DNA of 64,000 nucleotides. It comes from Mobula hypostoma (lineage: Eukaryota). The stretch covers positions 72,170,001 to 72,234,000 of the forward strand of contig NC_086097.1 of the NCBI RefSeq assembly GCF_963921235.1, in the 5' to 3' direction. Position numbers and translations under genes: made by a program. This document shows positions 14,335 to 62,695 of the stretch, piece after piece (positions within the stretch are counted from its first letter, which is position 1; every line of letters begins with the position of its first letter). Below the pieces are notes generated by a model that was not told the origin of the DNA, searched no databases, and was given only the letters and a program-made list of their open reading frames with translations.

Positions 14335-15160
14335 GGCATGGAAAACCTCCCTCCTGGCACTTATCTTTGCAAATGGTACAAGTGTTACACCTGTCCCTAC
14401 AACTCCTCCCATATTACCATTCAGGGCCCAAACAGTCCTTCCAGCTGAGGCAACACTTCACTTGTGAGTCTGTTGGGGTCACATACTGTGTTTGGTGTTG
14501 CCAGTGTGGCATCTTATATATTGGTGAGACCCGACATAGATTAGGAGACCGCTTCGCCAAGCATCTACACTCCATCCACCAGAACAAGCAGGATCTCCCA
14601 GCGGCCACCCATTTTAATTCCACTTCCCATTCCCATCCTGATATGTCCATTCATGGCCTCCTCCACTGAAATGATAAGGCCACACTTAGGCTGGAGAAAT
14701 AACACCTTATATTCCATTTGGGTAGCCTCCAACCTGATGGTATGAACATCAATTTCTCAGACTTCCACTAGAGCCTCCCCCCGCCCACTTCATCATTTCT
14801 CATCCCCTTTTCCCTCTCTCATGTTATCTCCTTGCCTGCCTATTGCCTCCCTCTAGTGCTCCTCACCCCCTTCCATTTTCTTTCCTCCATGGCCTTCTGT
14901 CTCTTTCACCAATCAACTTCCTAGCTCTTTGCTTCATCCTTCCCCTCCAAGTTTCACCTGTCATCTGGTATTTTTCTCTCCTCTCTCTCCATCTTTCAAA
15001 TCTACTCCTCAAATTTTTTCCTCCAGTCTTGCCGAAGGGTTTCAGCCCGAAATGTTAACTGTGCTTTTTCCATAGATGCTGTCTGGCCTGCTGAGTTCCT
15101 CCAGCATTTTGTGTGTGCTGCTCGGAATTCCAGCATCTGCAGATTTTCTCTTGTTTGTGC
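14335..15160 (+). mobile_element. Penelope-like element 3' part (GIY-YIG endonuclease + terminal repeat with degenerate hammerhead)
   Basis: CKWYKCYTC..FTCESVGVTYCVWCCQCGILYIGETRHRLGDRFAKH..ATHFN..LGSLQPDGMNI; pyrimidine tract; degenerate HHR at 15025-15060. Confidence 0.9.
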
Positions 15161-17110
15161 GTGGAAAAATTTATTGTGATACAATACGGTATGTAATACA
15201 CGATGCAATTACTTTTTTCTAATATGAGAGTCATGATATTTCTCTTTCTTTCAATTTTAAATCATTCTCTTTGAATTCCAGCAGACAAGGATTTGAAACA
15301 TTCCATTGAATTATTTTCATTTTCTATTTTAATGAAGTTGCTAACTAGTTCAATTGAACGATTTAATAAAATTGTGCAAAAAAGAATGTATGGCTTTAAG
15401 AGGTTTAAAGGATTTTCATTGACATTCATAAAGCCTAACATCAAGCTCTGTTTGTGTGTAAAGAAAAAGCAATTGCAGTTGCTCTTAGCATTTATGTAAA
15501 TCTGAAATACCTTCTCGATCTCAGCCGTCTGGCTGAGTTTTGGGAACCGGCCACCATTTTGCAGTAGAATGTTTCACTTTAATTACAACATCAAGCAGCT
15601 TCATTCACTGAGGAATTTCAATCCCAAACAGCTGCTTCTGAATCCCCCAAATATGCGTTAATTTGAAGTTAATTGCAGTAAGTGTAAATTAAGTAAAAGC
15701 AGAGTTATAGTAACATTACATCTAAATTATATAACAATAGAGACACTCCGCTTCTTTCACTGTGTCACATGAATGCAATTTTGTTAAACTGTCTTCTGAA
15801 TATTCTGATGCTTTGTGTCGAGCATCGTTCCAAGTGTCCTATAAAGTAAAACTGTATTTATAATTTGTTGGCTGTTTCTCCCCAAAAGCCACAAAGGATG
15901 GAGAAAATAGGAAATGATAAATGTATGTCACACCAGATAGGAGACAAGGGCTCGAATCCAAATGAAGAAAACTTATTTGAAAAGGACGCTTCATGCTTGG
16001 AATGCCAATTGCTGCAAACTGTAGATAAAAGTAGTTAAATTGTGAATCCCTACATACAAATTTAATCATTATTCAGAAATTCAATCTAACTTATACTTGG
16101 AAACAAAGGTATGATTTTCAGAACTGGTTTTGCTCTGTGTGAAAACAGAGAACATAAAGGCACATTTATGAAGTGTTTTACCATTAACAATAGTTCAATG
16201 GACATAATCCGAACAGTCATAGTGAATTAACTATATGTGAATTTACTCAATCTATTGCACAAAACACACGTTTTCAACAATAACACAGTTACAGGATAAT
16301 TTTTGGGCATATTATTATTACGTACAGAGATAAATCTGTCCATAAATCACTTTTTGTTAATATTTCCGGCACGTAAATGCTGCAAAGTTACAGGTAAAGC
16401 TCCAAGGGAGCTTCAGGGATGTCTGTTGTTATTGATTGGTGTATGGCATGTTCTTAAAGAATCAAAATTCTTTCATTCAGGGAAAAGGAGGATATATTGT
16501 ATACAATATTTGAATATATTATTTTATTTTTATATATATAGACATTCTCATTCTCTCTCTCTCTCAACTGGTGTTGCTGTTTCATGTCAAATCCAGTATA
16601 CATGTAAGAATCATTCTTCTAATATCAAAGTTTGATATTAATGCAATAACTCCAGTCTCAAGTGATCTAGGGCACTCTGTTTCAGGCTTTCAGTTATTGC
16701 AGAGTATTTAAGTGGAAGGTAAATACAGCTGTTCCTTTCTGAAATAAGTTGAACTAGGAATTGGTCTACCCTATACATAGTACTGTGATTGTGTAATAGA
16801 AGCAATCTTCCTGCTGATCTCCGGTGAGATCTCAAAGACAAAAGCAATGAAACATCATTGAAGTATGTCTACTTCTGCAAGGAAAGAATTGCAACAGTCA
16901 ATCTGCATGTTCCATGAAGAAAACCTAACAATTGAGCAAGCTATTTGTTTCAGTATTCAGATCATGGAGAAATATTCTCCCGAATTCTGCGAGATCCTTG
17001 CTATGTTTTCTTTTCCAGTTTAGGACAGGAGTCACAGAATCAAGATACAGTAATTGAAGTGATCCGTTGACCATCAAGTTGGTGCCAGTTCATAGTCAGT
17101 GAGTTTTCTA

Positions 17111-17636
17111 CACTCACTGGCCACTTTATTAGATACACCAGCTTTTTAACGCAAATATCTAATCAGACAATCATGTGGCAGCAACTCAGTGCATAAAAGC
17201 ATGCAGAGGTGGTCAAGGGATTTACTTGTTGTTCAGACCAAACATCAGAATGGGGGAGAAATGTGATCTAAGTGACTTTGACCATGGAATGATTGTTGTT
17301 CCCAGAGAGCTTGATTTGAACATTTCAGAAACTGCTGATCTCCTGGGATATTCACACACAACAGTCTCCAGAGTATACCGAGAATGATGTGTAAAAAAAA
17401 AAAATAAATTCAGTGAGTACCAGTTTTGTGTGCAAAAAATGCCTTGTTAATGACGGGAATGTGACAGTAACTCAAATAACCACACATTACAACAGCGATG
17501 TGCAAAAGAGCATCTCTGAGGACACAACACATTGAACCCTGAAGTGCCTTGGTTACAACAGCAGAAGACAACAAACATAAACTCAGTGGTGGACTTGTTA
17601 GCTACAGCAGGTGCTTAATAAAATGGCCACTGAGGG
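17111..17636 (+). mobile_element. Tc1/mariner-derived non-autonomous DNA transposon
   Basis: TA then TIR CACTCACTGGCCACTTTATTAG at 17111; inverted TAATAAAATGGCCACTGAG at ~17616-17634; HTH remnant DLSDFDHGMIV..NISETADLLGYSHTTVSRVYRE. Confidence 0.88.
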
Positions 17637-17947
17637 AAGTATGGAACTCTTGTGTTCCAACGGCTGTACCTGGTGCCCTGAAAGATGGAAGCAAATGTTC
17701 TAACACATTCTTCACAACTGACTACCTGGTCGCCACTTTCAGTATGTATCTGTACCTCTTGATCTCTGGATATCTATAATGCAGTTAATCAAGAACCTGT
17801 CTCTACTGCCCCCAAATAATTTCCTTTCAGGTAATTGTCCCGCTCTTCTGAATCTGCCTTCACACCTACCGTACAGCTGGCAATGCACTCCAAAGTTTTT
17901 CAACATGTCACTTTTTCAGAATCAGAATCAGGTTTAATATCATAGAC

Positions 17948-18589: not shown

Positions 18590-18601
18590 GAATGACCTGG
18601 C
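18590..18601 (+). promoter_or_regulatory. Primer-binding site, probable self-priming type
   Basis: AATGACCTGGC directly after the LTR end; no TGG tRNA-type start; complementary to LTR 18062-18072 GCCAGATCGTT with one G:U and one mismatch. Confidence 0.65.
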
Positions 18602-18605
18602 CACC

Positions 18606-22350: not shown

Positions 22351-22405
22351 AGACAATCTGGACAAGCCTGGTGGTTCACCTGGAGGCTCCCATTGAGGGG
22401 AGTAC

Positions 22406-23669: not shown

Positions 23670-24176
23670 CATGAAAAAATCAGGTTGGAGGAACAACACC
23701 TTATATTCGGTCTGGGTAGCCTCCAACCTGATGGAATGAGCATTGATTTCTCCAACTTCCATTAATGTCCCTCCTTCCCTTCTTACCCCATCCCTATCTA
23801 TCTATCTATCTATCTATCTATTTATTTATTTATTTTCTCTCTTTCCCTCTCACGATAACTCCTTGCCAGTTCTCCATCTTCCTCTGGTGCTCCCCTCTCC
23901 CTTTCTTTCTTCCAAGGCCTTCCGTCCCATGATACTCCCCCTTCTCCAGCCTTGTATCGCTTTTGCCAGTTAACTTCCCAGCTCTTGGCTTCATCCCTCC
24001 CCCTCCTGTTTTCTCCTATCATTTCAGGTCTGCCCCTCTCTCTCCCACTTTCAAATCTCTTAATATCTCTTTTTTCCGTTAGTCCTGACGAAGGGTCTCA
24101 ACCTGAAACGTCGACTGTGCTTCTTCCTATGGATGCTGCCTGGCCTGCTGCATTCACCAGCATTTTGTGTGTGTTG
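23670..24176 (+). mobile_element. Penelope-like 3' fragment / terminal repeat
   Basis: RLEEQHLIFGLGSLQPDGMSIDFSNF, (ATCT)n, pyrimidine tract, hammerhead and conserved tail; same subfamily as 51108-51568. Confidence 0.9.
24081..24116 (+). ncRNA. Minimal type-I hammerhead ribozyme motif, core intact
   Basis: AGTC-CTGACGA-AGG gtctcaa CCT-GAAA-CG-TC|GACT: stem I AGTC/GACT, core CUGAnGA, stem II, GAAA, palindromic ACGT stem III, GUC cleavage triplet. Confidence 0.8.
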
Positions 24177-25887
24177 CCCTTACCACCTTGTTATTTCTAG
24201 CAACTTAGCCAATTGCTCTTGTTGCTTCAGTTCATTTCATTCCATGAGCTTCAATCAAGATGACAAGCTATTATGTGGCTCCATATCAAACATCTTTGGA
24301 AGTCTATTAACACTAAATTAATTGCAATTCTCCATTCAACCCTCCCTGCAACTTCATCAAAAATCTCTGCAGTTAGTTAAACGTGATTTGCCTTTATCAA
24401 ATCCATGCTGACTTCTTCTTATCAATCCACACTTGTCCAAATATCTGCTAATTCAGCCTTTGATTATTGCTTTTAGTATTTGCCCTATAACTGATGTTAA
24501 ACTGGTTTGATTTTTGTTAAACAAAAGCCAGCTGAAGAGGAACTGCCACGCATTTGTAATGTAATTCTTCTGAAATGTTTAAATGTGAAGTTCAGGAATA
24601 TTTTATTTTAGCATCTGTGGAATTATTTCTGACATTTAAAGAAATGGAATATAATGAGGAAAAAGTGCCAAGAATGTCCTTTGTATGTGCAGCTGCATGA
24701 TCTTGGATATAAGCAAGTCTTCAGAGACAATGAGTCACTACAATCATCGTATATTCCCATTCAAGATGAAGCTAAAATGAGGCACATATTTATTCTTTAG
24801 TAAAACACATCTTTGGAGAGGTTTCATTTGAAAATTTTGATTCATTCTTGAAATTATTTATTTTTATATACATTGCCTGAAAGCCTTTTTTTTTTGCTTT
24901 GCTTTCAAAGGTAAATATCCGCCTAGATGTTTCACTCACGATTTATTACAGAATATCTTGTTCTCATTTTGCGCTTTGGCATAGACAGCACAAAACTTAA
25001 AGAAAGCTCCTAACTTGTCCCCACATGACATGTAAACCTACACTTATTAAGGCAGATTTCATTTACACTTCCTTCAGCCAGAACCTACTTTTAAAATGTA
25101 TTTAAAATTTTGGTTTTGATTTTCAAAATTTAAAGCTTATATCAACATCACAAATAGAACATTAGTTAATTTTGATGAAGTTCTTCGGATGAGGAGCCCT
25201 GCAGAGTGAGTTACTAATCTTAATGGAAACTTAGGAGAATATACAGGTATTGAGCAAGGGTGCATCACATGGGCTTTGAATCAAGTAATTAAACATCAAT
25301 TTCACAAATTCATAGACATTGATCCTGTGGGCAGTGAAAATGTAACAGAACACTCTGCTGTTCTTGAAGAAAGAAACCTCAACTGATCGAACAAATCATT
25401 AAAGAGTAGATTTCACTTCTTTAATCATTGACTTCCATCAGGCAGTAACTCAATAAGTTTGATAACACCAATATCATTCAGTTGACCTGGCCACCAACCT
25501 CCCACAGACAGCAAGCAAAGAATTAAAGAGCCTCTGTCTTTTCACCAACGTTTTAAAATATTGTGGAGAATGAAATAGTAATTGGACATTCACCTGGGAT
25601 CAGGTTAAAAGATGCAATTTCACAAATGTTTGAAATTTTAGGAAATTATTTTAAGGAGTATGTCACCCCACTTATATAAATTATGATAATACATTAGATG
25701 GTATTAGCATCAGAAAGGTCTTGATAATCAACAGTTAAGGAAGATTATGATATTAAAAATTCACTTACATTTTTGTGGAACAATGTATAAAATTGTCAGG
25801 GTATTTTGTTGGACTGTGGTTCATAAAAGCTATGGTTCCTGTCAGTTTACTGATTTATGGAGATTACACTGGATAAGGCTGCAAATT

Positions 25888-26035
25888 GGAGCAACACACA
25901 CGAAATGTTGACAGAACTCAATAGATCAGGCAGCATCTATGGAGGGAAATGAACAGTCAACTTTTCAGGCTGAGACGCTATGTCATTCTTATGTGTTTTG
26001 ATCCAGATTTCCAGCATTTGGATTCTCTATTGTGC
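25888..26035. mobile_element. Short Penelope terminal-repeat unit with partial inverted tail
   Basis: Minus-strand tail up to a degenerate HHR (~25955-25985), then plus-strand tail GATTTCCAGCATTTGGATTCTC. Confidence 0.65.
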
Positions 26036-26257
26036 AAAATGGAAAAGCCTGGAATCACTATCAGCAATTTATGCATTTCTGTATTTAAGCATAGGTACAT
26101 AATAGTAATGTTACTGCCAGATTTCATCCAATGTAACTTTGATTATCTCACCATTTATTTACACTGCGCTTTACAAATGCTATAGTAATTAATTTAGATC
26201 TTCCCTGTTAATACATATATTTTTAATCTAAAAGGTAGCTGAGCAAAGGAAACATAA

Positions 26258-27272
26258 TAAACAATGCAGATGCTGGAAATCTGAAGCAACGCACAAAAAG
26301 TGCTGAAGGTACTCAGCAGGTCAGGCAGCATCTATGGAGAGTAATGAACAGACCACATTTTGGGCCAAGACCCTTCAATAAATGACACCGATGGATTCAC
26401 ATGTGAAGTGCTGCCTCATTTGCAAGAACTGTTTAGGGCCCTGAATAGTGGTGAGGGAGTTGTTGTGAGGGGAGATGTAGCAGATGGCATGGTTGCAGGG
26501 ATAATTCCCTGGAGATAGAGCAATGGGGAGGGGTGATCAGACAAGGAATTCATGGAGAGAAGAATCCACTGGTGTCATTTATTGTATCTGGTGCTCCTGG
26601 TGTGGACTCCCCTTCACTGGTGAGAACTGATGCATTTCGGGGATCCTTTTTACAAGCTCTTTTACTCCATCTGCCATAACAGCCAGGCTTTCCTGGTAGA
26701 CAGCCATTTTAATTCCAATTCTCATTCCCACATTGACATTTTTGTCCATGACATCCACTACCACCAAGTTGAGGCTATTCAGATTAGAAGAACAACATCT
26801 CATATTCCGCCTTGATATCTCCAAACTGACAGAATCAGCATCGATTTCTTTTATTACTCCTCTGTCCACTCTCCACTTTTGTTTTCCTTTATATCCATGG
26901 CCCCATTACCCCATATCTTTCTCCTCTACCAATCTCTCAACCAGCCCAACACCCACATCTTCCCCCCTCTGGTTCCTCACTTCCTTCCCTTTACTCAATA
27001 GTCCTCTGTCCGCTTCTTCAGCCATTTGCCTCTCACCCCTATCACTTCCCATCTTCTTACATCATTCCCACCCCGCCCTCCACAATCTTCCCATCTTCCC
27101 CCAATTTCCTGGATTCACCAGTTCGTATACCACCCCTTCCCCCCACCCTTTTATACTGGCCTCTGCCCTTTTTTTTCCCTGTCCTGATGAAGGGTCTCGG
27201 CCCAAAATGTTGATTGTTCATTTCCCTCAATAGTTGCTGCTTGAGTTCCTCTGGCATTTTCAGTGTTTTGAG
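26258..27272. mobile_element. Penelope-like element with inverted architecture
   Basis: Minus tail + HHR 26258-26383; minus pre-GIY-YIG segment 26384-26560; plus GIY-YIG (GVIYCIWCSWCG..SHFNS..RLEEQHLIFRL) through HHR 27180-27215. Confidence 0.85.
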
Positions 27273-28074
27273 GCAAGGCATACCTGGTTTCCAGTGTTAA
27301 CTTGGATTCCCATAATAAAACTGTTCCGCAACATGCCCTTGAAAAAGCTTCTGCTTGGAGTTTTGTTGTGAATTTCTGTTTGCTTGCATGTGAAGTGTTC
27401 ATAAATCTGGCACAGCATTCACCAAGTTGTTAATGTATTTGAAGTCACTTTGAGTCACATCTCCTACTTGCTGGTTTAGAGTTTATAAACTGAAGCTATC
27501 AATTCCGTCTGTGAAAAGTGTATCAGAGTTCTAAATCATATGCTGTTCTCAGTGCTGACAAAGCATTCATCTGAATGCTTTGACTCCATAGCAGAGTGAG
27601 TGAAGATGTTTTCACTTGACTGAAAGACCTCACTTAACAAGAGGCCTTTGAGTTCATGGTGGGGTGGAGTGGTCAGAGAGAAATTGTTTCTGGATGTAAA
27701 TGCAATTGGAATGTTTGATGAATAAAATAAGCTATAACAAATGCACAGCCCAAACTTTAAAAACTTTGAATTTCAGTCTAATGAAGGGATTCCTTCAGAG
27801 AGGATGGCCAGTTTGTATGATAACAACACTTTGCATTTATATGATTCCTTATTTTGGAAAAATATCTTGAGGCATGAGGAATATGTTGTTCTATGTTGTC
27901 TCCCAATCAAGAGCAGCAGAATTATTGGGAAATATTTGCATTCAGGATGTTTAGTCAGGTTGATAACATGCATTGGAAATTTTGTTTTGTTGTACTGAGC
28001 TGTGCAATGTTGCACAACAGTTCTATCATTGAACAAGCGCACACACAATATTCATACTTTGTATTTAGGTAAAT

Positions 28075-33704: not shown

Positions 33705-33724
33705 ATTTATTGATTTATTGAGTA

Positions 33725-34370: not shown

Positions 34371-34442
34371 AAAATGAAACTCTGCATTGTATTTGGTGAT
34401 ACATATGTACATTGATAATAAATTTACTTTGAAATTTCAAAC

Positions 34443-35309: not shown

Positions 35310-36302
35310 TTCTGCATCTCCTGAGGCAGGGGTAGGAAAAGGAGTGCAGGTTGGCAAATGATGGCTGAAACCAAGTGAGGATTAAGGTGGTTGGGTGGTG
35401 GAAGAGGAGATAAAGCAAGAAGCTGGAAGGTAACAGTGAAAGAGGTAAAGCATGAAGAAGAAGAAGAAACTAATAGGAGAGGACACTGGGCCATGAAAAA
35501 AAGGGAAGGAGGAATGGGTAGGGCTACACCAGCCCCTACACCTCCTCACCATCCCTCAGGGCCCCATCACCTTCAGCTATGAATCTTTCAGGGTCATCTA
35601 CTGCATTCAGTGCTCCCAGTACTGCCTACTCTACGTCAGTTAGACCCAGTGTAAATTGGAGTCTGCTTTATTGAGCATGTACATGTATTGAGCACAAAAG
35701 GCAGAATTTCCCAGTGGCCACCCAGTTCAATTTGACTTCCCATTCTGATCGCCACACATCAATCCACAGCATCTTCTGCTGCCACAATGACACCCTACTA
35801 CTCAGGTTGGAGGAGCGACACCTCACATTGCACCTGGGTAGCCTCCAATCTGATGACATGAACATCAATTTCCCTAACTTCTGGTAATTCTCCTTCCTCC
35901 CCCTTTGCCTCTTTTCAATTCCCCATTCTGGTTCCCCTCTCACCCCTTCTCTTCTCATTTGCCCATCACCTTCCTCTGGTGCCCCTCTTCCTGCCCTTTT
36001 TTCCATGGTCCACTGCCCTCTCCTATTAGATTCCTTCTTCCTCAACTAATTTACATTTTCCACCTATCACCTCCTGGTTTCTTACTTCAACACCCTCCCC
36101 CACCCACCCATCTTCTCCCTCACCTGGTCTTACCTATCACCTGCCAGCTTGTTTTGCTCCCCCACCCCACTTTATTCTAACTTCTGCCCTACCTTTCTTT
36201 CCATTCCTCATGAAAGGTCTTGGCCTGGTAGGTCAGCTGTTTATTTCTCTCCACAGATGCTGCCTGAGCTGCTGAGTTCCTTCAGCATTTTGTATCTGTT
36301 GT
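35310..36302. mobile_element. Penelope-like element: inverted purine-rich arm (35310-35515) plus a plus-strand GIY-YIG 3' part
   Basis: CESFRVIYCIQCSQYCLLYV.., RLEERHLTLHLGSLQSDDMNINF, pyrimidine tract, degenerate HHR ~36205-36240. Confidence 0.8.
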
Positions 36303-36363
36303 TAGCTTATATGCATTCTTCTTCCTGTATTTCATAGATCATTTGTAGCCACTTCTAACATTA

Positions 36364-36959: not shown

Positions 36960-37380
36960 GGCTCAGGCAGTTTAGAAGAATGGGGGGCGGGGGGGAGGGT
37001 TGTCATAGAAACCTACTGAATGTTGAAAGGCCTAGATACAGTAGATGTGGAAAGGATGTTTCCTATAGTGAGGGAATCTCGGACTGAAGGGCACAGCCTC
37101 AGAAGAGAGGGACGTCCATTTAGAACGGAGATAAGGAGGAATTTCTTTAGCCAGAGGGTGGTGAATCTATGGAAATCATTGCCACAGGCAGCTGTGGAGG
37201 CCAAGTCATTAAATATATTTAAGTCAGAGGTTGATAGATTAATGATAAGTCAGAGTATGAACTGCTACAGGGCAAAGGCAGGAGAATGGGGTTCAGAGGG
37301 AAATGCATCAGCAATGATCAAATGGTAAAGCAGACTCGCTGGACTGAATGGCTTAATCTGCTCCAGTATCTTATGGTCTG
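36960..37380 (+). mobile_element. CR1 3' end
   Basis: VERMFPIVRESRTEGHSLR..FRTEIRRNFFSQRVVNLWKSLP; tail TCTTATGGTC. Confidence 0.92.
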
Positions 37381-38574
37381 CTGTGTAAAATAAAATGGAG
37401 AGCTTTAAAGCCTTCATGATGGGGGATAGATGTGTATAGGGACTGGACATCCATAATGGAAATAAGGCTGGTGATCTGTAAGCATCCACTGAGTGTCTAC
37501 ACGTCACCGGCTGCATTCTGACAACATCCATACTTAACCTAACGCAGGTCACAGGTAGGCAAGGAGCAATCACTGTACCAGGTTCAGGAACAAGTGAATT
37601 TTTATCCTGGGTATCGGATCGTGTTGGTTTGAGACCAGAGTTCATAAAGCTTGAATCAGAAAACAAGTGTTACCAAATGAGCATAGCATGGTTCAAGTAC
37701 ACTGCACCAACCTCTGGATACAGGTAGCAGGACATGCATAAGTAATGTATAATTAATCATTGTGGCAGGCCATTCACCTCGAAGGAGTACTTATTAGTTA
37801 TATTTAGTATTGGAACAAATATTGAATTACCACAAAATTATAACATTTATATGCACTATGAAATTTTTGATTTGAATATCTTACTTTATCTATCCCAGAG
37901 GAGTTCTGCTTTAAAGCGGTTGCCCTTGGATAGGTCATGTCTGTTTTCTGTTCTAATATCTGTGTATGCTCTATATGATTAGTGGATTAAATAACTGAAT
38001 CAAAATCCTCATCAAAATGTTAATAATCCATTCTTTGTAGAAACTCAGCCGGACCTTGCCTTGCATTTCAATATTCAGATTTGTCATTGATTCCTTGCAG
38101 CTTGCCCCCGTGCTTTCGTACATCAGTGGCACGATGAATTCTATTGCTATTCTGTCAGGTCCCTGTGGTAAGCACTGGTGCATACATAACTACAAGCAAA
38201 GGCAGTTCGAGTTTTCGCCAGAGAAAGATGTATATTTAGGAATGTTTATATTTGATAACCATATTTCTATCGCTATTAAAAGTTCTTTAGTTTTCCCCGG
38301 CATTTTGAGTTAGGTATGAAAAGTTGAGCATTGCAATCCACCAATCAAGCGTACACTTTGAAAGTGATGCAGACTTCTTTCCTTTTGTCACTTGTATAAG
38401 CAGAAGTTTCAGGTGGCTCAATCAGTTATGACAGTCAGTTACTGTGCATATCAAAGTTCCCCGGTGGATTCAGGGTGTAGACTGATGGCTGAGCTTGGCT
38501 GTATCAGTGGTAAGGGTGTAAAAATTATATCTAACACCTTAGGTCAGAGAAAGAAAACTCAGGCAAGGTTCCTG

Positions 38575-38800
38575 ATGCAAAAAAAAATCAAACTGCTAGA
38601 AAAGATCAGCAGATCAATCAGCACCTGTGGAGGGAAAAGAGCAGTTGACAATTCAAGTCAATTCCCTTCATCAGGACTGAGAGTGGAGATGGAAGGTAGT
38701 GGATATAAAGAGAGGGGGAGGATGAGATAGTTGGCAGCAGATGACAGCTGGACTGAGGAGGGGGAGGTTAAATGGACAGGTGGAGCCTCGTAGGTGGGGA
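38575..38800 (-). mobile_element. Penelope terminal-repeat fragment
   Basis: Tail plus CCCTTCATCAGGACTG (HHR CUGAUGA on the minus strand). Confidence 0.7.
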
Positions 38801-39007
38801 GAAATTACCGATTGCTTTCAACACCAGAAATTGACTGTCGTGTTCCCATGTTGGAAGTCTGCAATGTTCATTGAGGTTCAGGCATAAATGAGATTGCAAA
38901 GATTAATGCAAGATTTTGAGGAAACATTGACCATCAAAGACACTTTTCAGGAGTGGAAGGGAGAAAACAGTGGGAAAATAATCTATTGTTATTTGAATTT
39001 AAATCTC

Positions 39008-39480
39008 AAGCTGATGGCATCAACTTCTCTAAATTCCAGTAAGTTCTTCCCCCCGCCCCCACTTCTCCCATCTGCATTTCTCCATTCTGGCTCCATTCTT
39101 ACCCCTTCTTCTCCTAACTTGTCCATCACCTCTCTCTGGTGCCCCTCCATCTTTCCTTTCTCCCATGGTCCACCATCCTCTCCTATCAGATTCCTTCTTC
39201 CTCAATCACTTCACATCTATCGTTTCCCAACTTCTTACTTCAACCACTCCCCCATCTATCCACCCTCACCTGATTCAACTTGTCACCTTCCAGCCTGCGT
39301 TCCTTCCCCTCCTTTCACCTTCATATTCTGGCTTCTTTCCCCTTCCTCGTCAGTCCTTATGATGGGTCTTGGTCCGAAAAATCAATTGTTTATTCCTCTC
39401 CATATGCCCTGCTGAGTTGCTCTAGTATTTTGTGTGTGTTGCTCTGGATTTCCAGCATCTGTAGAACCTTTTGTATTTAT
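39008..39480 (+). mobile_element. Penelope 3' fragment
   Basis: CTGATGGCATCAAC.., pyrimidine tract, degenerate HHR 39351-39388, tail TTTCCAGCATCTG. Confidence 0.8.
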
Positions 39481-39879
39481 GATTTGATTGGACTTCTGTT
39501 ATTTCTTAATCAAAACAAATCCATGGAAGATTTATATATTTGAAATAGAGCCAGGTATAATTCAGTTAGAAATTGTCTCTACTTATAATTGGTATGAAAC
39601 AAAATACAAAGCAATTCAATGTTCTTGTTAATGTTTACAGGGCCCAAACTGCAGAATCAGACCATGAAAAGAGGAAGATGAATTTGGTTATAATGTGAAA
39701 GTTTTAAAATCTTTTAAAAAACATGGAGGACTTTGTAAAAGATAAGGGTTAGTGTGATCTTAGAATAGGTTACCTGTCAAGGGAAATTTTGGGAGGGAAT
39801 CAAATTAACAAAGAGTGAAATTAATCGGACAGAGAGCGGGGTTCTACCAAAGTCCTGATCTGCATTGGCCTTCAAACTG

Positions 39880-41945: not shown

Positions 41946-41949
41946 GACT

Positions 41950-42075: not shown

Positions 42076-43611
42076 GAGCTATTGCACACTATGGTTTACT
42101 CTAATATTATTTGTTGTTATATCTTTGCCAATATTCCCTACTCACAATAAGTGATAATATTTGTCCCAATATGCTTTATCATAATTTACATTTTTACTTG
42201 TAAAAAAGAATTAATGACAATCATTAATAGAGTAGTTCAAACACACATAAGTGTGCCAACTAATCTACCTAACAATAACATAATAAATGCCCTTTGATAT
42301 TTCCATGCTTAGGTATTTTTTGTCTATTTCATACCTGATGTGGACACCACGAGTTTTCCTGCTTCTGCATTTTCAGATGTCATCATTTTAAATTTGTGAT
42401 TTAGAACCAAAGAGGGGAACATTGAATTAGACTGTATAATTGTTACTTATTTGCAGTTTATCTTTCTTATGACTGCTTGTATTTTTATATAATTACCTAA
42501 GCACCTCAATAGAAAGCATACCACACTAGATACTGCTAATGGGGGTGATCTACCAGGGAGGAGCCACAGAAGCCAGGTCTCTGAGACTGAGTCTGGCGCT
42601 GTGGTTCAGAAGAGAGCCAAGGTAAAGATGACTGCAGTGCTGATAGGAGATTCCATAGTTAGGGGAACAGAGGAGTTTCTGTAGGTGTGATAGAGACACT
42701 CGGATGGTATGTTGCTCCCCAGGTGCCAGGGTCAGTGATGTCTCGGATCAGGTCCACAGAACTCTAAATGGGGAGGGTGAGCAGGCAGAAGTCTTGGTAC
42801 ATATTGGCACCAATGACAAGGGTAGGAAAGGTGAGGAGCTCCTGAAGAGAGATTTTAGGGAGCTAGGTAGAAAGCTGAAAAACAGGACCTCCAGGGTAGT
42901 ATTCTCTTGATTGCTGCCTGTACCGTGCACTACACATCAGTGAGGGTAAAAATAAGAACATTTGGCAGATAAATGCATGGCTAGGGAATTGGTGCAGGGG
43001 GCACAGTTTCAGGTTCCTGGATCATTGGGATCTCTTCTGGGGAAAGTACGACCTATACAATAGGGACAGATTGCACCTGAACCCAAGCGGGACCGATATC
43101 CTTGTGGGCAGGTTTGCTAGAGCCATTCAGGAGGATTTACACTAATTTGTCAAGTGGATGGGAAATGGAGTGATAGTGCTGAGGATGAAGTAGTTGGTTT
43201 ACAAACAAAGATCCTGCATAGTGATACTGCTAGCAAGGAGAGGCTGACGACAGGGCGAAATTCCAGTCAACAGGATGAGTTGCGACGTAAAAGGGGGACA
43301 AAATCGAAAAGGGTGATGAATACAGGACTGAAGGTGTTATATTTGAATGCACCCGGTATACAGAATAAGGTAGATAAATCTAGCACAGCTTCAGATGTTG
43401 TGGGCATCACTGAATAATGGCTGAAAGTAGATTATAGCTGGGGACTTATTGTCCAAAAATACATGTTGTATTGAAAAGAGTGGCAGGTAGACTACGGAGG
43501 CGGGGTGGTTCTGCTAGTAAAAAATTAAATCAAATCATTGGAAAAAGGTGATCGGAAGGCGTGGAATTGTTCTGAGTAGAGCTAAGAAGCTGACAAGGGT
43601 AAACAGACCCT

Positions 43612-43708
43612 GGCAACACACATCAAAGTTGCTGGTGAATGCAGCAGGCCAGGCAGCACCTCTAGGAAGAGGTACAGTCGACGTTTCAGGCCGAGACCCT
43701 TCGTCAGG
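43612..43708 (-). mobile_element. ~97-bp Penelope tail with intact hammerhead core
   Basis: Minus strand CCTGACGAAGGGTCTCGGCCTGAAACGTCGACTG; near-identical to 51145-51240. Confidence 0.88.
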
Positions 43709-44814
43709 GTTGTCCAAAACGTAAAGTGTAAAGGAGAGGTGAGAGTGGAGATCAGACCACTGAAAAGCGATGCTGGAGAGGTAGTAATGGAGGAAAAGGA
43801 AATGGCGGATGAAATGAATAAGTATTTTGCATCAGTCTTCACAATAGAAGACACAAGCAGTATTCCAGAAGTTCAAAAATGTCTGAGAGTGTGTGAAGTT
43901 TCCATTACTCAGGAGAAGGTGCTTGGGAAGCTATAAAGTCTGAAGGTAGATAAATCACCTGGACTAGGTGGTCTTTTCCCAGTATTGTGAAAGCATAGCT
44001 GAAGAGATTGGGAAGGCATTCTTTAAAGAATTAATGGATTCTGGCATGGTTCTGGAGGTCTGGAAAATTGCAAATTTCACTCTACTCTTCAAGAAGGGAG
44101 AGAGGCAGAAGAAAGGAAATTATCATCCAGTTGTTTGACCTCAGTGGTAGGGAAGATGTTGGAGTTGATTGTTAAGGATGGGGTTTCAGGGTACTGGGAG
44201 GCACATGATAAAATAGGTCATAGTCAGCACGGTTTCCTTAAGGGAAAGTCTTGCCTGACAAATTTGTTGAAGAAATAACAAGCAGGATAGACAAAGAAGA
44301 ATTGGTTGATGTTCTGAACTTGGCCTTTGACAAGGTACTACACATAAGGCTGCTTAACATGTTAAGAGCTCATGGTATTACAGGAAAGGTACTAGCATGA
44401 TTAGAACATTGGCTGATTGGCAGGAGGCAAAGAGTGGAAATAAAGGGGGATTTTTCTGGTTGGCCGTCAGTGACTAGTGGTTTTGCACAGGGGTCTGTTT
44501 TGGGAAGATAGGTGAAGGGGCGGGTAGTTTTGAGGAAGCTCAGAGACTACATAAGGACTTAGACAGATAAAGAGAATAGACAAAGAAGTGGCAGATGGAA
44601 TACAGTGTCGGCAAGTGAATGTTCATGCACTTTGGTAGAAGAAACTTAAGTATAGACTATTTTCTTAGTTGCAAGAAATTTCAAAAATCTGAGGTTGGGA
44701 GCTGGGAAGTTGGGAGTCCATATTCAGGATTCACTGACGGTTGATTTGCACGTTGAGTTGGTAGTGAGGAAGGCAATTGCAATGTTAGCATTCATTTGAG
44801 AGGACTAAAATATA

Positions 44815-48954: not shown

Positions 48955-50179
48955 CTGCAGAAAGCAACAGCAGAAAGCCCCAATACTTTGCGGGTCTACG
49001 ACCCCAGAATTTTTTTCCTCTTACAGGCAGCCAGGGCTTTCTAGGCTACCTAAGGCTAACTCACTGCTGAAACCTCTTCAGGTGTTGCCAGATACCTCTC
49101 TGTTGTGAAAACTCAGCTTGTATAGGCACTCTGGATCTGATACTGACTAACGGAGGGGTTGGGAGGGGTGTTTCGGGAAGACAGGGGGTGAGTCAAGAGA
49201 ATGAGCTGAATTCTACTCCATGCGTTCCAAACATCTCTTTGACATTCTTGAACGTGTCTTAAATAATCTAGAGGAGCCCTTTTCCATCAGCAGCTAATCT
49301 GTAAGGAAATGATAATCCCCTTAAATTTTGCTGATGTAAAAATTTTCCTGTAGCAAAATGTATCTAAGAACTAGCGAATACTGGGAGCATTGAGCTCTTA
49401 ATTGAAAGTTCAGGCGTCAATCGAGATTGGAGATGATTCACGTTGCTCTGCACCATCCCAGAGACACTCACTAAAGCCTCACTGACATTGTATCTGGTGC
49501 AAATGATACCAGTAATGCATACATGCAAAGCAGATGCCATTTTGGAGATTTGAGAACACTTGTAATACTCGAGGAATGAATACTAATGATCTATGTTTCT
49601 TATTGCATAACTTGGACAATATTTGTACACTTCCCAGTGGCCATCCAAAGAGCAGCAAAAGAAGGAATCTTAAAACATGTTGGGAAATAATGCAATTGAT
49701 TTTTGGAAGGAAATTGGTCACATGGGTGCTGGAGCAGATGCTTTGTGTGTGTGAATGTAGTGAGTGGAGCCGGTGCCAACGCAGCTGCTGCCAGCCCCAT
49801 TTATATGCTTGTGGCTGCAAGAGAATTTCACTAATCCAAACGGGGCTAATTTACATGTATCAGTCAATAATCCAAACATATTTTTGTAAACATGCACTTC
49901 CCATTTGGAGCTGTACCAGCTCAGCTTTTTCACATATATATGTAATCTATTCTGGGGAAGAAAATGTCCATAATGTTAATCCTTATCAATGAAATCGTGT
50001 TACAGAATGGAAAGTTACCAGAGTACAAGACCTTTACACTGAGGCACAGATGTGGGAACACACACAAAATGATGAGTTCCTCCAAATGATGGGTGTCGCT
50101 CTGGATTTCCAGCATCTGCAGAATCTCTTGTGTTACGGATGTGGGAATCTCACTGACTGAGGGGCATTAGAGTTGATTA

Positions 50180-51107: not shown

Positions 51108-51568
51108 TAAACACGAGGAATTCTGCAGATGCTAGAAATTCAAGCAACACACATCAAAGTTGCTGGTGAACGCAACAGGCCAGGCAGCATCTCTAGGAAG
51201 AGGTACAGTCGACGTTTTGGGCCGAGACCCTTCGTCAGGACTAACTGAAGGAAGAGCTAGTAAAAGATTTGAAAGTGGGAGGGGGAGGGGGGGACCCAAA
51301 ATGATCGGAGAAGACAGGAGGGGGAGGGATGGAGCCAAGAGCCGGTCAGATGATTGGCAAAAGGGATATGAGAGGATCATGGGACAGGAGGCCCAGGGAG
51401 AAAGAAAAAAGGGAGAGGGGAAAAAAAACCAGAGGATGGGCAAGGGGTATAGTCAGAGGGACAGAGGGAGAAAAAGGAGACAGAGAGAAAGAATGTGTGT
51501 ATATAAATAAATAACAGATGGGGTATGAGGGGGAGGTGGGGCATTAGTGGAAGTTAGAGAAGTCAATG
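51108..51568 (-). mobile_element. Penelope terminal repeat with hammerhead motif (51207-51242, G12>A)
   Basis: Minus AGTCCTGACGAAGGGTCTCGGCCCAAAACGTCGACT; highly similar to 23745-24176. Confidence 0.9.
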
Positions 51569-51889
51569 AGGTTTTCATTTTAGAAACTTAAGAGAAACAA
51601 AATATCTAAACATTACGTGTGTTGTGGTCTTCACTTTTCTTGCATTTTCACATTCAAATTGGAGCAGTTGTCCAGTGGTGCATTGCAAGCTTGTGTTGTC
51701 TCAGCTTGCTCATTTTCGTTGTTTGAAGTGGATGGATTAGACCTGAAAACAACTAATGCATATTTATATTGCACCAGTGAAGTACCAAAACAGCTGATAT
51801 TCATCCAGAAGACAATGATCAAGCAAGGGGTAAGATCAAGCCACATGAGAAAATATTTGGAACATTGAACAAGAAATAAGAATTTATGA

Positions 51890-53290: not shown

Positions 53291-53489
53291 TGTGAATAAA
53301 GCTATGAAAGGAATTCTAGTGCTTCAGGGAGGCACACCTAAAAGCACCGTTGCAATACAAGTTCAATGAAAATTACATACCTAGATCAGGGAAGTACAGA
53401 AATCTGAGATGACTGTGGAACTGGAGGAGGTTAATCACATATGGAAGTGTCATGGATGGAAAGGCCTGAAAATAGCAAAGAGATGATGA

Positions 53490-53845
53490 AGCCACTCTCA
53501 GTTTGGAAGAGCAACACCTCATATTCTGTCAGGGTAGCCTCCAATCTTATGGCGTGACCATCGATTTCTCCAACTTGTGGTAATATTTCCTCCTCCCCCT
53601 TCTCCCTTCTTCCATTCCCTACTGTGGCCTCCCTCTTACTCCTTCTCTTCTCCTCACCTGCCTATCACCTCCCTTGGTGCCCCTCCTCCTTCCTTTTCTC
53701 CCATAGTCCACTCTCCTCTCCTATCAGATTCCTTCTTCTTCAGCCTTTAACTTTTCCACCTATCATCTTCCAGCTTCTCATTTCATCCCTCCTCCATCCA
53801 CCTGCCTTCCCCCTCACCCGAGTTCATCCAGCATTTTCTATGTGT
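53490..53845 (+). mobile_element. Penelope 3' fragment
   Basis: LEEQHLIFCQGSLQSYGVTIDFSN followed by a pyrimidine tract. Confidence 0.8.
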
Positions 53846-53954
53846 TACAATGAATATTGAAGTCAATGCAGTTCAAAACAGGGAGTCAGTTACAGACAAT
53901 TGAACAGAACGTTATTGCCTTTATTGCTAGCACTAGGTTTTGTATGAAAATTTA

Positions 53955-54155
53955 AAAACTGCAGATGCTCAAGTAAAAAGAATGATGGAAGGACTCAACA
54001 GGGCAGGGAGCAATTGCTTAAAAAGAAAATAAATTAACGTTTCAGGTCAATGACCCTTCAGCAAAACTAATCAGATCTGAGATTTTAACTCTTCCTTTCT
54101 CTACAAGTGCTGCACATCCAGCTAAATGATTCTAACATGTTCTGGTTTCCTTTCA
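53955..54155. mobile_element. Old palindromic Penelope-tail unit (a similar one lies at ~55600-55760)
   Basis: Minus tail, then AACGTTTCAGGTCAATGACCCTTCAG (HHR remnant), then plus-strand tail. Confidence 0.55.
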
Positions 54156-54405: not shown

Positions 54406-55789
54406 CAACACTTTTCTTCTGAAAACACTAATAAGGTCACAGTCGAGCATTCCAGCAGCAGGTGAGCTGACGTGAAGTTAACACAGGCAATGGTCAGAGG
54501 TGAAAGAGGGATGAACTGAACTGACTGTGAACTGAAATCGAAAGAGAACATTAGAAGGAAACAAATCTGAAAACAAAATACAACTTAATAGTATACTTTT
54601 GGAAATTATCATTATTATCTACGTGTGGATTAGAGAACAATTAAACTCCATTTTAAAGCTAGTTCAGAAAATATATGCGCTTGTAATCCTTTTCATCAGA
54701 ATGTCACCTCTTGCCTGGTTTTACTGTGTTCAATAATCCTTGATTGACAATGGCAAAAGCTTTACTTGTAGAATTTATTTTAATTCCGCTGATTTAAATT
54801 TATTATCACTGACAGGCAAGCTCACTGATTTTCATTGTTAGCATTGCTGACATACAGCAATAGCTACGAATATTTTCATTCAATAAGAAGGACTGTGCAT
54901 CTTCCGTTCTGCTACTGTCCATCTGAGAGTGCTCCCATGTCATTGCCTCTGTTTCATCTATCACAGCCCAGTAATTTCTATCTCACGCTCTGACATGCCA
55001 GTGAGTTGAATGCTGATGATGCATTACACATCCAGCATCTTTTTGTCGCACTATGACATATCAGCTCATGTCTACTCAAAGTAGTTAGATAAAGCCAGTG
55101 GCAAATAAAATCTACAATCATGAGAAAAGGCTTTTCTCACTAATCTTGAAATGTTGAAAACCTGAGCAAGAAATTCCAATTATTGGACCCATAAATGTAT
55201 GACGTATCATTGCTCTTCAGATCAGCATTTAAACAAGCCTTCTGAAGGAGCAGAGATTAAACACTGACCTGAAATGCTGCACATAGTAGAGTCTGGAAAA
55301 CCACAAAATCGACAGTGTATTGTTTAGTTGATCTAGATTTTCAATAGAAGGCAAACATGGATTATTATACAATATGTTCCAATTTCTGCTTATAACATTG
55401 ATTCTGCGCCTAAGCCACTGAAGGAGCTGGTTATTAATTTCTAAATTTTGTTCCAGTCACACACCCTCTGTGAAATCACTCATTTCTGTCAAACGAAAGC
55501 AAATACATCCCATGGTACAAATTTTTGAAGTGAAATGGGGCTGTAATCCCTAGTAATTTGGCCATTTTTACCCCACAATCCATATCACTAAAACAGATTA
55601 AAACAGGGAGACATGGAAGTACTTAGCAAGTCAGACTGCATCAGTAGAGAGAGAAACAGTGAAAATGTTTCAGATCGATGACACTTCTTTGGAACTCTCC
55701 TTCTACTAGTGGTTGCTTGACCAGCTGAATATCTCCACCATTCTCTTTTCTTATTTCACATAACATACTTCCACTTTCTTTTTCACTAC

Positions 55790-58654: not shown

Positions 58655-59760
58655 GCAAGAAGGAACTTCCGAAGTGTGATATGGGATGTGGAAAAGCCAA
58701 CAGCCAGTTTATTCACAGCAACCCTGAACAAACAGTAATGTGACACCGGAAAACCTGCTTTTGTGATGTTGACTTATCGTTAAGTATCAGCCCAATGCTA
58801 CTGTATAGCTGGGACTGAATCCTCTACATTTACCTGAGGATATCGATGGTGTAACACACACAAGATGCTGGAGGAACTCAGCAGGTCGGGCAGTATCTAT
58901 AGAGAGAATTGAACCAGTTGATGTTTTGGGCTGGGACCCCTCATCAGGACTGGAAAGAAAGAGAGCAGAAACCAGAATAAAAAGGTGGGAGGAAGGGCAG
59001 TAGCATGTGCTTATGGGTGATAGGGAAAACGATGTGAGGGGGAAGGTGGCTGAGTGGTGGACAGGGGATAAATTGAAAAGGTAGGGAGCTGAAGGAAGGG
59101 GGAACTAGGAATGATGTGAGAAGCTAGGAGGTATTAGGTAGAAGAGGTAAAGGGCTGAAGAAGGAAGAATATGACAGTAGATGAGGGAATAAAGAGGAGG
59201 TAAGGAACAAGAGGGAGAACAGTGTGGGTGATAAGTCATGACAGCGGGGGGAGGAAAAGAGGAAGCATGAAAGAGCCAGGGGAATAAAGACAAACAAAAG
59301 TTGTGCAGGGGGTGGGGGAGTTGCAGAGACCAAAGGCAGGGAGTGGTTATGGGAAATTAGAGAAATTGATGTAGGGGAGAGGGAGAGACAGAGGGGAGGG
59401 AGTGGTTACTGGAAATTAGAGAAATTGATGTTGATTCTGTCAGGTTGGAGATTGCTAAAATGGAATATGAGTTGTTCCTCTGATCTGTATCTAGAGGGGG
59501 CCATGGACACATGTCTGTGTGGGGATGGAAAGTGGATTTAAAATAGCTGTCAACCAGAAGATCCTGGCTGTTACGGCAGACAGAGCAAAGGTGATGATGA
59601 AGTGAACCATCCCCCCCACTCCCATCTGCATTGGGTCTCACTGATATGGAAGAGACTGCACTAGGAGCTCGGTGATTTGGTTTAATGACTCATACAAAAC
59701 AACAGTCTTCACTTCGTGCACTGGGCCATCAGCTGGAATTTTTATGAGTTTAAATCTCTG
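58655..59760 (-). mobile_element. Deu-domain SINE remnant split by the Penelope insertion (58655-58850 + 59670-59760)
   Basis: ACAAACAGTAATGTGA..CTGCTTTTGTGATGTTG..TACCTGAG | GGTTTAATGACTCAT..TGCACTGG. Confidence 0.55.
58851..59665 (-). mobile_element. Penelope-like 3' part with hammerhead motif (58916-58951)
   Basis: Minus AGTCCTGATGAGGGGTCCCAGCCCAAAACATCAACT; GIY-YIG remnants (DLLVDSYFKSTFHPHTDM). Confidence 0.85.
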
Positions 59761-60064: not shown

Positions 60065-60475
60065 TAAAAGAAAACCTGGCTTTTTGATTCTGAGCATTCT
60101 TTAGAGTTTAGGAGAATGAGAGAAGATCTTCTTAGTAAGTACGAACACTTAAAGGGCTTGAGAGTGGAAAGCAGGAAGAATGTTTCTCCTGGCTGAGGAG
60201 TCTGAGACCAAGGAACACAATATACAAATAAGGGTAGGCCATTAAGTACTGAGATGAAGCAAGATTTCTTCATTAAGGTAGTGCTAAACCTTTGGAATTC
60301 TCTCCCCCACACATGGTAGTAGCTCAGTCACTGTGTCCATTTATAACATCAATCAATAGATTTCTAGGTATGGAATGAATCAAAGGATACGGGCATAGTG
60401 CTAGAAAAAAGACACTGATGTGACAGATTAGTTATGATCTCGATCATGATCCAAATGTCTACTCCTGCACTGATT
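60065..60475 (+). mobile_element. Old CR1 3' end
   Basis: STEMKQDFFIKVVLNLWNSLP-like; CTACTCCTGC near the end. Confidence 0.8.
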
Positions 60476-62554
60476 ACAAACCCTGGTGTATTTTCTTATT
60501 ATCAGGTTTTTATTTATTACAATTCCTTCTACAAAACTGCCAAACCCTGAGTTAGTTATAATGGTAGGTCAGCTGCAGTTCCAGGGAAATTCCAGTTTAT
60601 GCCTTGGAGAAAAAATAATCTCTCCTCCCAGGGAACCATCTGCAACCTCTGCTTCATATTGTTGTTATGGTTTTGTCCTGGAACTGCAAAGGCTGTGGAC
60701 AGGACCAGATGGCATGTGTTGATTAGTACAAGAATTGCTGTGGCCAGAGTTGAAACATGATAGTCACAATTCTCAGTAAACAGTGAGCTCCAAAAATATA
60801 AATGAAAAACTGGATATAATGTTAAGACCTAATTAGTTTACATTTACATCAAATATGCATACTTATGAAACGCAAACATTCACTTAACAATCAGGTATTG
60901 CTGAATAAAACTTCCTGTAACATGCTATTACAGATTATTCTGCCTTTCCTTGGGCTTCTTGTTCGCTTTCAATCTGAGGAGTGCTTCAAATGGGAGAAAC
61001 AACAATTAAATCTCATGGTTGAAGCTCACAGGCCAGGATTAGTGAGCAGTTCTAACCACCACAGTGTCATGCTACCTGAGCTGACGGGTTTTCTGTTTGG
61101 CTTCCCTTTATAGAATGCAAGGTTTGCTTCTTAAAATGGACTGGACGTTGGGGTGTCAATGCAGCAAACTCTGCAGGTACCTCCTCCTCTACCTTAAAGT
61201 GATCAGCAATAAATTCATCAGTCTGGAAATTACCTCTAGCAACTTCAACTGCTCTGAGTTTGATGTAGTTGTCTTGATGTTAATTTGTTATTTTAATGGG
61301 GTTGTCCATTTGCTTATGATAAAAATAAGTTAGCATTAAATTTTCAGACAGGGTGGTGTCATTTGCTAATACCGGCAGCAGTAATTTCTGGATGCTAGTC
61401 TTCAAGGTTAGAAATAAATTCGCTCTTCCTTAATGGGTCATTAATTTGTATTGACTACTGTGGTTGTGCTTCCTCCATTTCGAAAGGGACGTGGCTGACA
61501 GATTTCATGCTCTCTCTGCTCCCCATTTGCTATGCATGGTTACCAAGGGCATTAGTAATCAGCGAAAACTTATCTTCCTCAAGATAGAATTTTGGCTTGA
61601 ACTCTGTTGAATATTTCATAGTGGCATATATTCTCAAATTCTAGCCTTATTATTATTTCCATAAATGAATTATTTTCTCGGTTAGAACATGTGTTACTAT
61701 CTCATTCGTTATCAATATAGTTACATAGGCTTTGACATTTCTTTCCACTGCCCCTTCACAAAGAAAATCTCCCATGATTCGCTGCTTTATCGGTGAATAT
61801 CATTGCCTTTACATCACTGATAGCATGGTTCTTCAAATCTTTCCCATTTAACAACAAACTATTTAAATTTCAGCTGCAAAGATTTTGCACTTCAGCTGAC
61901 ATGCACACTTAAATAAAGTATCCCAGCAAACAATTAAACTAGACAGGCATTAATCATAATCATTGTGTGGATTTTAGAACCAGTTTAGCAGCATTCATCT
62001 ATTTTTAGAAGAAGTCAATGATAAAGGAAATTTAAGCACATCATGTTCAGTTTACAGAATATTACACGTCTATTTGGATCTCTGCTGAATTGCTTACAAA
62101 TTGTCTTCAGCAGCCCTGACAATGAAATGAGAACTGAGTACATTTCAATATTGTTCCTCAATGCTCCTCACTCTCCCAGAGCTGCCATTTTAACTGAATT
62201 CTCAGCATGTATTCCTTTGCTGTTACTGGGTCACAATTGTGGAACTCTCTCTAACAGCATTGTGGCTACTCCCACACCCCTCCAAGTGATTCAAAGAGGC
62301 AACTCCACCACCGTCTCAAGGACAACAAACACTGACAATTAAATGATGCTCAGCCAGTGAAGGCATTTCATTTGAAGCAATATTTTTAAAAATGCCTTTA
62401 TCATACACGGAGCTTAGAAAAATAGAGGGCTATGGGTGACCCTAGGTAATTTCTACAGTGAGGACATGTTTCGGACAGCTTTGAAGGCCAAAGGGCCTAT
62501 ATTGTGCTATAGGCTTTCTCTGTTTCCATGCTTCTGTACAGACTGCAGCATTTC

Positions 62555-62695
62555 AAAAGGAAAACACAAGAGATTCTGCTGATGCTGGAAATCTAGAGTA
62601 ACACAGAATGCTGGAGGAACTCAGCAGGTTGGGAAGCATCTATGGAAAGCAATAAACAGTTGGTGTTTCATGCCAAGACTCTTCCTCCGGAATCC
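62555..62695 (-). mobile_element. Short Penelope tail ending at a degenerate hammerhead
   Basis: AAACACAAGAGATTCTGCTGATGCTGG..GCTGGAGGAACTCAGCAGG..GTGTTTCATGCCAAGACTCTTC. Confidence 0.75.

Follow-up and report, generated by a model that had tools for sequence, protein, structure and literature searches.

The window analysed here, 64,000 nucleotides of the ray Mobula hypostoma (assembly GCF_963921235.1, contig NC_086097.1, positions 72,170,001 to 72,234,000), holds 14 short motifs that are, with a probability of about 0.9, copies of a minimal type I hammerhead ribozyme located in the pseudo-long terminal repeat (pLTR) of a very abundant Penelope-like retrotransposon. Judged from their sequence, the truncated insertions carrying them have likely lost all activity and are likely in neutral decay, chiefly at CpG sites. 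The motif family is thus of a known kind: a new Penelope-like member family with the standard minimal hammerhead, represented mostly by decaying relics.

An earlier note on this DNA had listed about 13 copies, and all 13 are present. An ungapped scan with the 36-letter motif recovered 12 of them at 1-12 mismatches, each within 2 bases of the position listed; in 50 shuffles, the mean number of matches with up to 12 mismatches was 0.0. The remaining one (54032-54068, minus strand) requires a 1-base gap and has an E value of 1.9e-8 with a profile trained without that copy. A fourteenth copy, absent from the earlier list, lies at 55660-55696 on the minus strand (profile E 8e-6, the best E of the reversed-window control being 1.6). 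Profile scores are inflated for training copies; those at 25955, 54035 and 55660 are outside the training set of the later profile. The likeness extends about 60-100 bases past the motif in all 14 copies, which therefore belong to a dispersed repeat family. Together with its motif-less pieces, this family occupies 6,625 bases, about 10% of the window. Five motifs are on the plus strand and nine on the minus strand (p=0.42), thus without strand bias, and nearest neighbours of the same strand are 395 bases to 12 kb apart. None of the motifs belongs to a tandem array, since none of the 14 TRF rows of the window overlaps any of them. As several pairs seem to be two arms of one insertion, the 14 motifs probably correspond to about 12 insertions.

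The minimal hammerhead (min-HHR) of metazoan Penelope elements, as described by Cervera and De la Pena 2014 (PMC4209133), comprises a U-rich flank, a short helix I, CUGANGA followed by one extra base, a G10.1-C11.1 pair opening helix II, GAAA, a palindrome replacing helix III, and NUH. At every position, the majority sequence of the 14 ray copies agrees with this consensus. The core CUGANGA, the extra base, G10.1-C11.1, GAAA and the 15.1-16.1 palindrome without helix III are all shared, and so are the 4-bp helix I, the U-rich 5' flank, the location in the pLTR and the occurrence mostly as single dispersed copies on truncated elements. Two differences appear: helix II is of 4 bp here, at the short end of a range that reaches 7-8 bp in Schistosoma (the alignment of that paper has shorter ones too), and the density looks higher than in Xenopus tropicalis or the coelacanth, for which about 9,000 and 4,000 motifs are reported there, the figure for the ray being an extrapolation. 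The majority line keeps the core CUGANGA...GAAA...NUH, so that the hammerhead-type motif with an intact family core, proposed from the sequence in the earlier note, is upheld. The pair 10.1-11.1 can form in all 14 copies (6 G-C, 7 G-U and 1 A-U). Paired cells amount to 93% for helix II, 66% for helix I and 79.5% for the two together, versus 21-48% in slid controls; the ACGU palindrome is kept in 4 of the 14 copies.

A hammerhead with such an extra base is known from the viroid CChMVd. The same note had drawn this parallel for the extra A before stem II; the extra base does exist in 14/14 copies and is A in 12 of them, but it is no viroid-like oddity, since the base between 9 and 10.1 is named in PMC4209133, where De la Pena and Flores 2001 is cited, as conserved in all metazoan Penelope minimal hammerheads.

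The link between the motif and Penelope-like elements encoding a reverse transcriptase (RT) and a GIY-YIG endonuclease is confirmed by endonuclease remnants located upstream of motifs on the same strand and by matches to ray RT/GIY-YIG proteins. Comparison of ray proteins with the window (tblastn) reveals such remnants for 6 of the 14 motifs (15025, 24081, 26350, 27180, 36203 and 58916) and weak links for two further ones (39352 and 51207); sequencing-run contigs that depart from the 51207 copy at 51568 run on into the endonuclease C-terminus. The open reading frame (ORF) 14205-14666 matches five proteins of Mobula hypostoma and Hypanus sabinus (58-80% identity), in all of which RT motifs and a GIY-YIG domain are seen together with a cysteine linker. 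A search with the ray protein P0004 led to 29 longer proteins, 27 of which align over 96-100% of P0004 (30-49% identity) and have a precomputed RT and/or GIY-YIG Pfam family; P0004 has no match among PDB sequences at E<=1. The ray homologues and relatives of 800-1000 residues carry the RT followed by GIY-YIG, whereas only endonuclease remnants and one RT fragment are found in the window. Four aligned relatives display GxKF, DKG, the RT core, a CX4CxxC linker and a CxxC inside GIY-YIG. In the same way, the window encodes the CX4CxxC linker at 14344-14433 (also seen in P0001) and, at 14424-14666, a CxxC within the GIY-YIG core with downstream histidines, that is, the CCHH signature. Some gene models in public ray annotation, labelled mucin-2, divergent protein kinase domain 1C and NLR protein (P0003, P0004 and P0034), contain the coding sequence of the element and therefore reflect annotation contamination or exonisation.

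By the motif definitions of Craig et al. 2021 (PMC8557442), the element is assigned to the Neptune or Nematis type of Penelope-like elements. The CX2-5CxxC linker, common to Neptune and Nematis, excludes Penelope/Poseidon. Neptune is favoured over Nematis because, as stated in a recent preprint (bioRxiv 10.64898/2026.07.22.740005), Neptune and Poseidon were the only elements found in vertebrates. With the Neptune/Nematis elements presented in PMC8557442, the ray family shares the C-terminal GIY-YIG with two internal cysteines and downstream histidines, the linker, the 5' truncation, the inverted 5' arms and a 30-40 bp tail; it differs in that the window is without a full-length copy. On one strand, the order is RT, CX4CxxC linker, GIY-YIG endonuclease, stop, about 250-320 pyrimidine-rich bases, motif, and the 3' end about 100 or 135 bases on, the distance from stop to motif being 254-316 bases in the three copies measured. 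PAc, the Poseidon element of Anolis described by Frangieh et al. 2024 (PMC11167929), also has a sense-strand pLTR hammerhead, AT-rich flanks, and 3' ends at two sites about 100-135 bases downstream (the tail), but it belongs to the Penelope/Poseidon clade and lacks the zinc finger of the linker.

The insertions have the hallmarks of Penelope-like elements, i.e., 5' truncation, inverted 5' arms and an optional tail of 30-40 bp. All copies are 5'-truncated. Copy lengths, motif-less pieces included, span 65 to 835 bases. An inverted 5' arm forms a diverging pair in the cases of 26350/27180, 38643/39352, 35342/35513, 25955 and 55660, and weakly for 54035. Copies end either about 100 bases past the start of the motif or about 35 bases beyond that. 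Furthermore, loose contig ends whose AT-rich flanks are unrelated accumulate at 51109 in four of four runs and at 51145 in one run. These two points are 36 bases apart, a spacing that matches the 30-40 bp tail reported in PMC11167929 and PMC8557442. A contig of a second organism crosses the 5' junction of the 51207 copy with 16 differences in about 690 bases; the insertion is therefore older than the split of the two organisms.

Most of the cores are damaged. Over 12 core positions, two copies have no break, five have one and seven have two or more. The intact cores, 24081 and 43676, are on opposite strands and 19.6 kb apart, and both helices are kept only in 24081. The change of GAAA to AAAA after C (G12>A) noticed earlier is found in 4 of the 14 copies (26350, 27180, 51207 and 58916), and its attribution to CpG decay holds: CpG positions are changed in 57/140 cells (41%) versus 44/346 elsewhere (13%; p=4e-11), and 50 of the 57 changed CpG cells are C>T or G>A. 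Within the window, C11.1>U is seen in 8 copies and G12>A in 4, an asymmetry that is not significant (p=0.39). Outside CpG, 14/119 cells of the core are changed (12%), versus 96/565 cells of the block downstream (17%; p=0.17), so that no better conservation of the core than of the flank can be detected.

The family is present at a very high copy number, as one DNA run, of which about 96% was read, has 135,060 contigs that align to one copy at 82% likeness or more over a 1,441-base stretch, and the run of the second organism has 76,812; the depth is concentrated on the 480-base element within this stretch. Neither summed contig depth nor the motif/flank depth ratio of about 1e6 is a copy number. 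Scaling the counts of the window (14 motifs and 2 intact cores in 64 kb) up to the contig total of the run, 2.8 Gb, would give about 6e5 relics (3e5-1e6) and about 9e4 intact cores (1e4-3e5), figures for which a single window is a weak base. The statement that the genome holds a very large number of ribozyme motifs thus stands for copy number and is overstated for ribozymes, 12 of 14 cores being broken and several pairs probably being arms of one insertion. Among the best 40 of 90 difference rows, G makes up 81% and 83% of DNA depth at position 12 in the two runs, so the family majority keeps the base that the 51207 copy has lost. U at 11.1 accounts for 38-39% of depth, about twice the non-G at 12 (17-19%), in these depth-weighted figures, both positions belonging to one CpG (51218-51219); source elements could have tolerated the 11.1 wobble but not G12A. 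Two further runs, presumed to be RNA, yield 4,210 and 7,615 family contigs with almost no cover of unique flanks. Going upstream across the motif, the summed presumed-RNA depth falls to 0.41-0.56 then 0.06-0.09, a steeper drop than for DNA (0.82-0.88 then 0.27-0.31), a comparison that was not used because contig depth cannot rank parts.

Table. Penelope-like copies, fragments and hammerhead motifs in the window (positions in the window).
Feature	Position	Strand	Description
Longest Penelope-like copy	14325..15159	+	CX4CxxC Zn-finger-like linker, GIY-YIG endonuclease (frameshift, stops), pyrimidine-rich pLTR, 3' tail
Hammerhead relic of longest copy	15025-15060	+	C3 and A6 changed
5'-truncated copy	23671..24180	+	Endonuclease C-terminus, pLTR, hammerhead 24081-24116; ends without tail
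Hammerhead	24081-24116	+	Core intact, helix I 4/4, helix II 4/4 (G-U at 10.1-11.1); sole complete-looking motif
Short copy	25875..26029	-	Begins within motif (25955-25990, broken core); short inverted tail piece on + at about 25989-26029
Inverted arm	26257..26566	-	Linker and endonuclease start fused to hammerhead 3' part (26350-26385; 5' core absent, G12>A), tail
Main arm of diverging pair with 26257..26566	26534..27298	+	Endonuclease, pLTR, relic 27180-27215 (G12>A)
Copy	35342..36304	+	Endonuclease 35545-35881, pLTR, relic 36203-36238 (3 core changes); inverted pLTR piece 35342-35513(-) ahead
Isolated RT fragment of the element	37374..37454	-	74% identical to P0004 residues 1-27
5'-truncated pLTR copy	38576..38781	-	Relic 38643-38678 (A15.1 changed, helix II 3/4); probable inverted partner of 38951..39482
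Copy	38951..39482	+	Endonuclease end (weak, tblastn E 0.047), pLTR, relic 39352-39387 (G5 changed), tail
Copy of about 100 bases	43611..43711	-	Begins at motif 43676-43711; core intact, helix I 5' strand mostly gone (2/4 pairs); inside LINE-like fragment
Tail-only fragment, without motif	50070..50134	+	
Young-looking copy	51109..51592	-	Last ORF codons, pLTR, motif 51207-51242 (one core change, G12>A), tail
Copy with hammerhead lost by internal deletion	53479..53854	+	Endonuclease end and pLTR
Old short copy	53959..54144	-	Begins at motif 54032-54068 (C3, A6 changed); weak inverted partner + 54077-54144 (E 0.1)
Fourteenth copy	55614..55746	-	Relic 55660-55696; inverted partner + 55703-55746 (E 0.005)
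Copy	58849..59668	-	Endonuclease remnant, 60-base internal duplication, pLTR, motif 58916-58951 (G12>A); no tail
Short copy	62558..62695	-	Begins at motif 62658-62693 (U4, U16.1 changed); with tail

Several results weigh against this assignment. Six short copies are without a direct endonuclease link, and the window contains no full-length element, no tandem pLTR pair and no 5' end of the element. Three of four ray proteins match Pfam GIY-YIG, with scores of 18.8-20.9 that are just below the curated cut-off of 22.6. The neutrality test draws on 14 copies of at least two subfamilies and has little power. A search of the window against Rfam at E<=1 gave no hammerhead and two unrelated matches at chance level, compensatory covariation shows no excess over shuffles (189/500 reach the score), and folding z-scores are only -1.4 to +0.1. 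It is therefore agreement with the published consensus that supports the structure. The missing Rfam match, the lack of a covariation signal and the weak folding z-scores also speak for a likeness to a hammerhead due to chance, the motif never having been a ribozyme, an explanation to which almost no credit can be given: the consensus is matched at every core position, in both helices, in the extra base and the palindrome, and in the U-rich flank and the location within the pLTR, and hammerheads were reported in the pLTRs of all the Penelope-like elements examined in PMC4209133.

It is improbable, but less so, that the units of 100-135 bases starting at the motif form a separate non-autonomous family, similar to retrozymes or short interspersed elements (SINEs), that uses the Penelope enzyme. 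In six of the 14 copies (25955, 26350, 43676, 54035, 55660 and 62658), homology ends in a zone of about 15 bases at the 5' edge of the motif (p from 1e-4 to 0.04 for an assumed chance per copy of 0.06 to 0.2), and 319 contigs with unrelated flanks depart at 51241, the outer edge of helix I. Furthermore, non-LTR retrozymes derived from Penelope are reported in one chondrichthyan (bioRxiv 10.64898/2026.07.22.740005); like the ray copies, they have a type I hammerhead originating from a Penelope pLTR. However, retrozymes are defined there by tandem units that each bear the motif, whereas the copies described here are dispersed and several keep endonuclease-coding sequence; no two or more such units with a complete hammerhead apiece follow one another in the window, and the spacing of same-strand neighbours given above is that of dispersed copies. 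The short copies also have differing upstream sequences and include members of both subfamilies, three of them have the inverted arms typical of truncated Penelope insertions, and copy lengths are spread over the whole range mentioned above.

Even less probable is a role in the host, in which some dispersed copies with intact cores would cut host transcripts, as trans-dimers or with the help of proteins, and so affect host RNA. The core is kept in two copies and both helices in one, extrapolation would give 1e4-3e5 intact cores per genome, and two 24081 motifs cofolded reach -22.4 kcal/mol versus 2 x -9.7. Yet the core strands stay mispaired in this cofold, so that it is not an active dimer. 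The best predicted fold of the lone 24081 and 51207 motifs also pairs the two core strands together (monomer energy of -9.7 kcal/mol versus -5.7 with an open core). According to PMC4209133, monomers did not cleave and dimers did so little, and according to PMC11167929, the anole motif required the protein of its element, no RNA-seq reads ending at its cut site. The location of the two intact copies on opposite strands 19.6 kb apart, the absence of detectable conservation of the core over the flank and the absence of strand bias all argue in the same direction.

The preferred explanation remains truncated insertions of a Penelope-like element, which could arise as follows. Full-length tandem source copies, as known from the literature, would be transcribed from a pLTR; the protein of the element would nick AT-rich DNA and begin reverse transcription internally, at either of two points located past the motif, giving two 3' ends 36 bases apart. 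The tail of the anole element is attributed in PMC11167929 to two such internal RT start sites downstream of its hammerhead. Early termination, often with an inverted second arm, would then leave short motif-bearing stubs. Within source RNA, cutting by the motif would require a dimer formed through the ACGU palindrome, probably with the help of proteins. A lone copy is predicted to fold as an inactive hairpin, so that the genomic stubs, even the one or two with intact cores, would do essentially nothing. As for the clustering of 5' ends at the motif edge, its likeliest origin would be a stalling or a strand switch of the RT on reaching the folded motif.

Other features of these insertions concern possible splicing. 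The eight copies keeping the upstream pLTR have 73-87% pyrimidines there, and six of the eight end in AG at the motif edge (e.g., 15025 and 58951). This pyrimidine tract with AG at the helix I edge resembles a splice acceptor, as in Penelope of Drosophila virilis, whose intron ends at helix I according to PMC4209133. GTAA occurs at the ORF stop in some copies (35887 and 53583) and could mark a pLTR intron of the same kind. Among the rows listed for the two presumed RNA runs, neither the putative acceptor nor the cut site coincides with an RNA-specific joint or loose end, and no loose end falls on the cut site among the contig rows listed for the 51207 copy. In the inverted arm 26377-26566 (minus strand), the endonuclease start and the 3' half of the hammerhead meet directly at a microhomology of 2 bases, so that about 650 bases are missing between them; this junction looks like a template switch or a deletion, not splicing.

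Some candidates were set aside. The ungapped match at 46957 (13 mismatches) was recovered by neither profile and was discarded. The profile matches at 51723-51881 and an extension to 51720 were artefacts, the profile having contained about 290 bases of non-element flank (51593-51880). The tblastn match at 51879-51430 was rejected as low-complexity, and contigs place the 5' end of that copy near 51592.

The rest of the window is rich in other repeats. An 86-base tandem repeat (2.4 copies, 14131-14337) lies directly 5' of the longest Penelope copy, and another tandem array (33724-34371) has a 14-base unit in 46 copies with 77% matches. A relic of a Ty3/gypsy-type long terminal repeat (LTR) retrotransposon (17946-22949, plus strand) has terminal repeats 87-88% alike and gag, RT, RNase H and integrase domains in separate broken frames. 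Many RT fragments of long interspersed elements (LINEs), putatively CR1-like, are found at 526-13981, 34666-35214 and 42550-46000 (Pfam RVT_1 in three frames tested; self-similarity), and an RT fragment of a different element lies at 41587-41859 on the plus strand (Pfam RVT_1, E 2e-8). No host exon was found: the Pfam scan of 70 of 154 mostly unmasked frames of at least 55 residues gave one RT fragment and two matches far below cut-off, and the exon-looking frame 61070-61279 (minus strand) had no useful Atlas match. [quoted passage not shown]

Since 2014, it has been known that hammerheads occur in Penelope pLTRs, that they have the extra base and that they are dispersed in large numbers through fish and amphibian genomes. 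Supplement file 2 of PMC4209133 names no shark, skate or chimaera among the terms searched, and no account of the hammerhead of the ray family turned up in a search, mostly of paper listings and not extending to Repbase or Dfam, on Penelope elements in sharks, stingrays, elasmobranchs and chondrichthyans. The remaining value of the family is quantitative: it covers about 10% of the window, and so many insertions allow statistical tests of selection on the motif, of sense-strand intron avoidance by intact copies and of the RT stop position relative to the motif. A more speculative proposal, rather unlikely as it stands, is that intact minimal hammerheads may number tens of thousands in this genome, which would exceed the figures reported for other vertebrates, and that the folded motif or a splice acceptor at its edge could be a point where the Penelope RT stops or switches strand. 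This idea comes from the short insertions, which start at the outer edge of helix I, with its pyrimidine tract and AG, and not at the scissile bond. If true, the Penelope hammerhead would have a structural role, testable from the insertion record alone.

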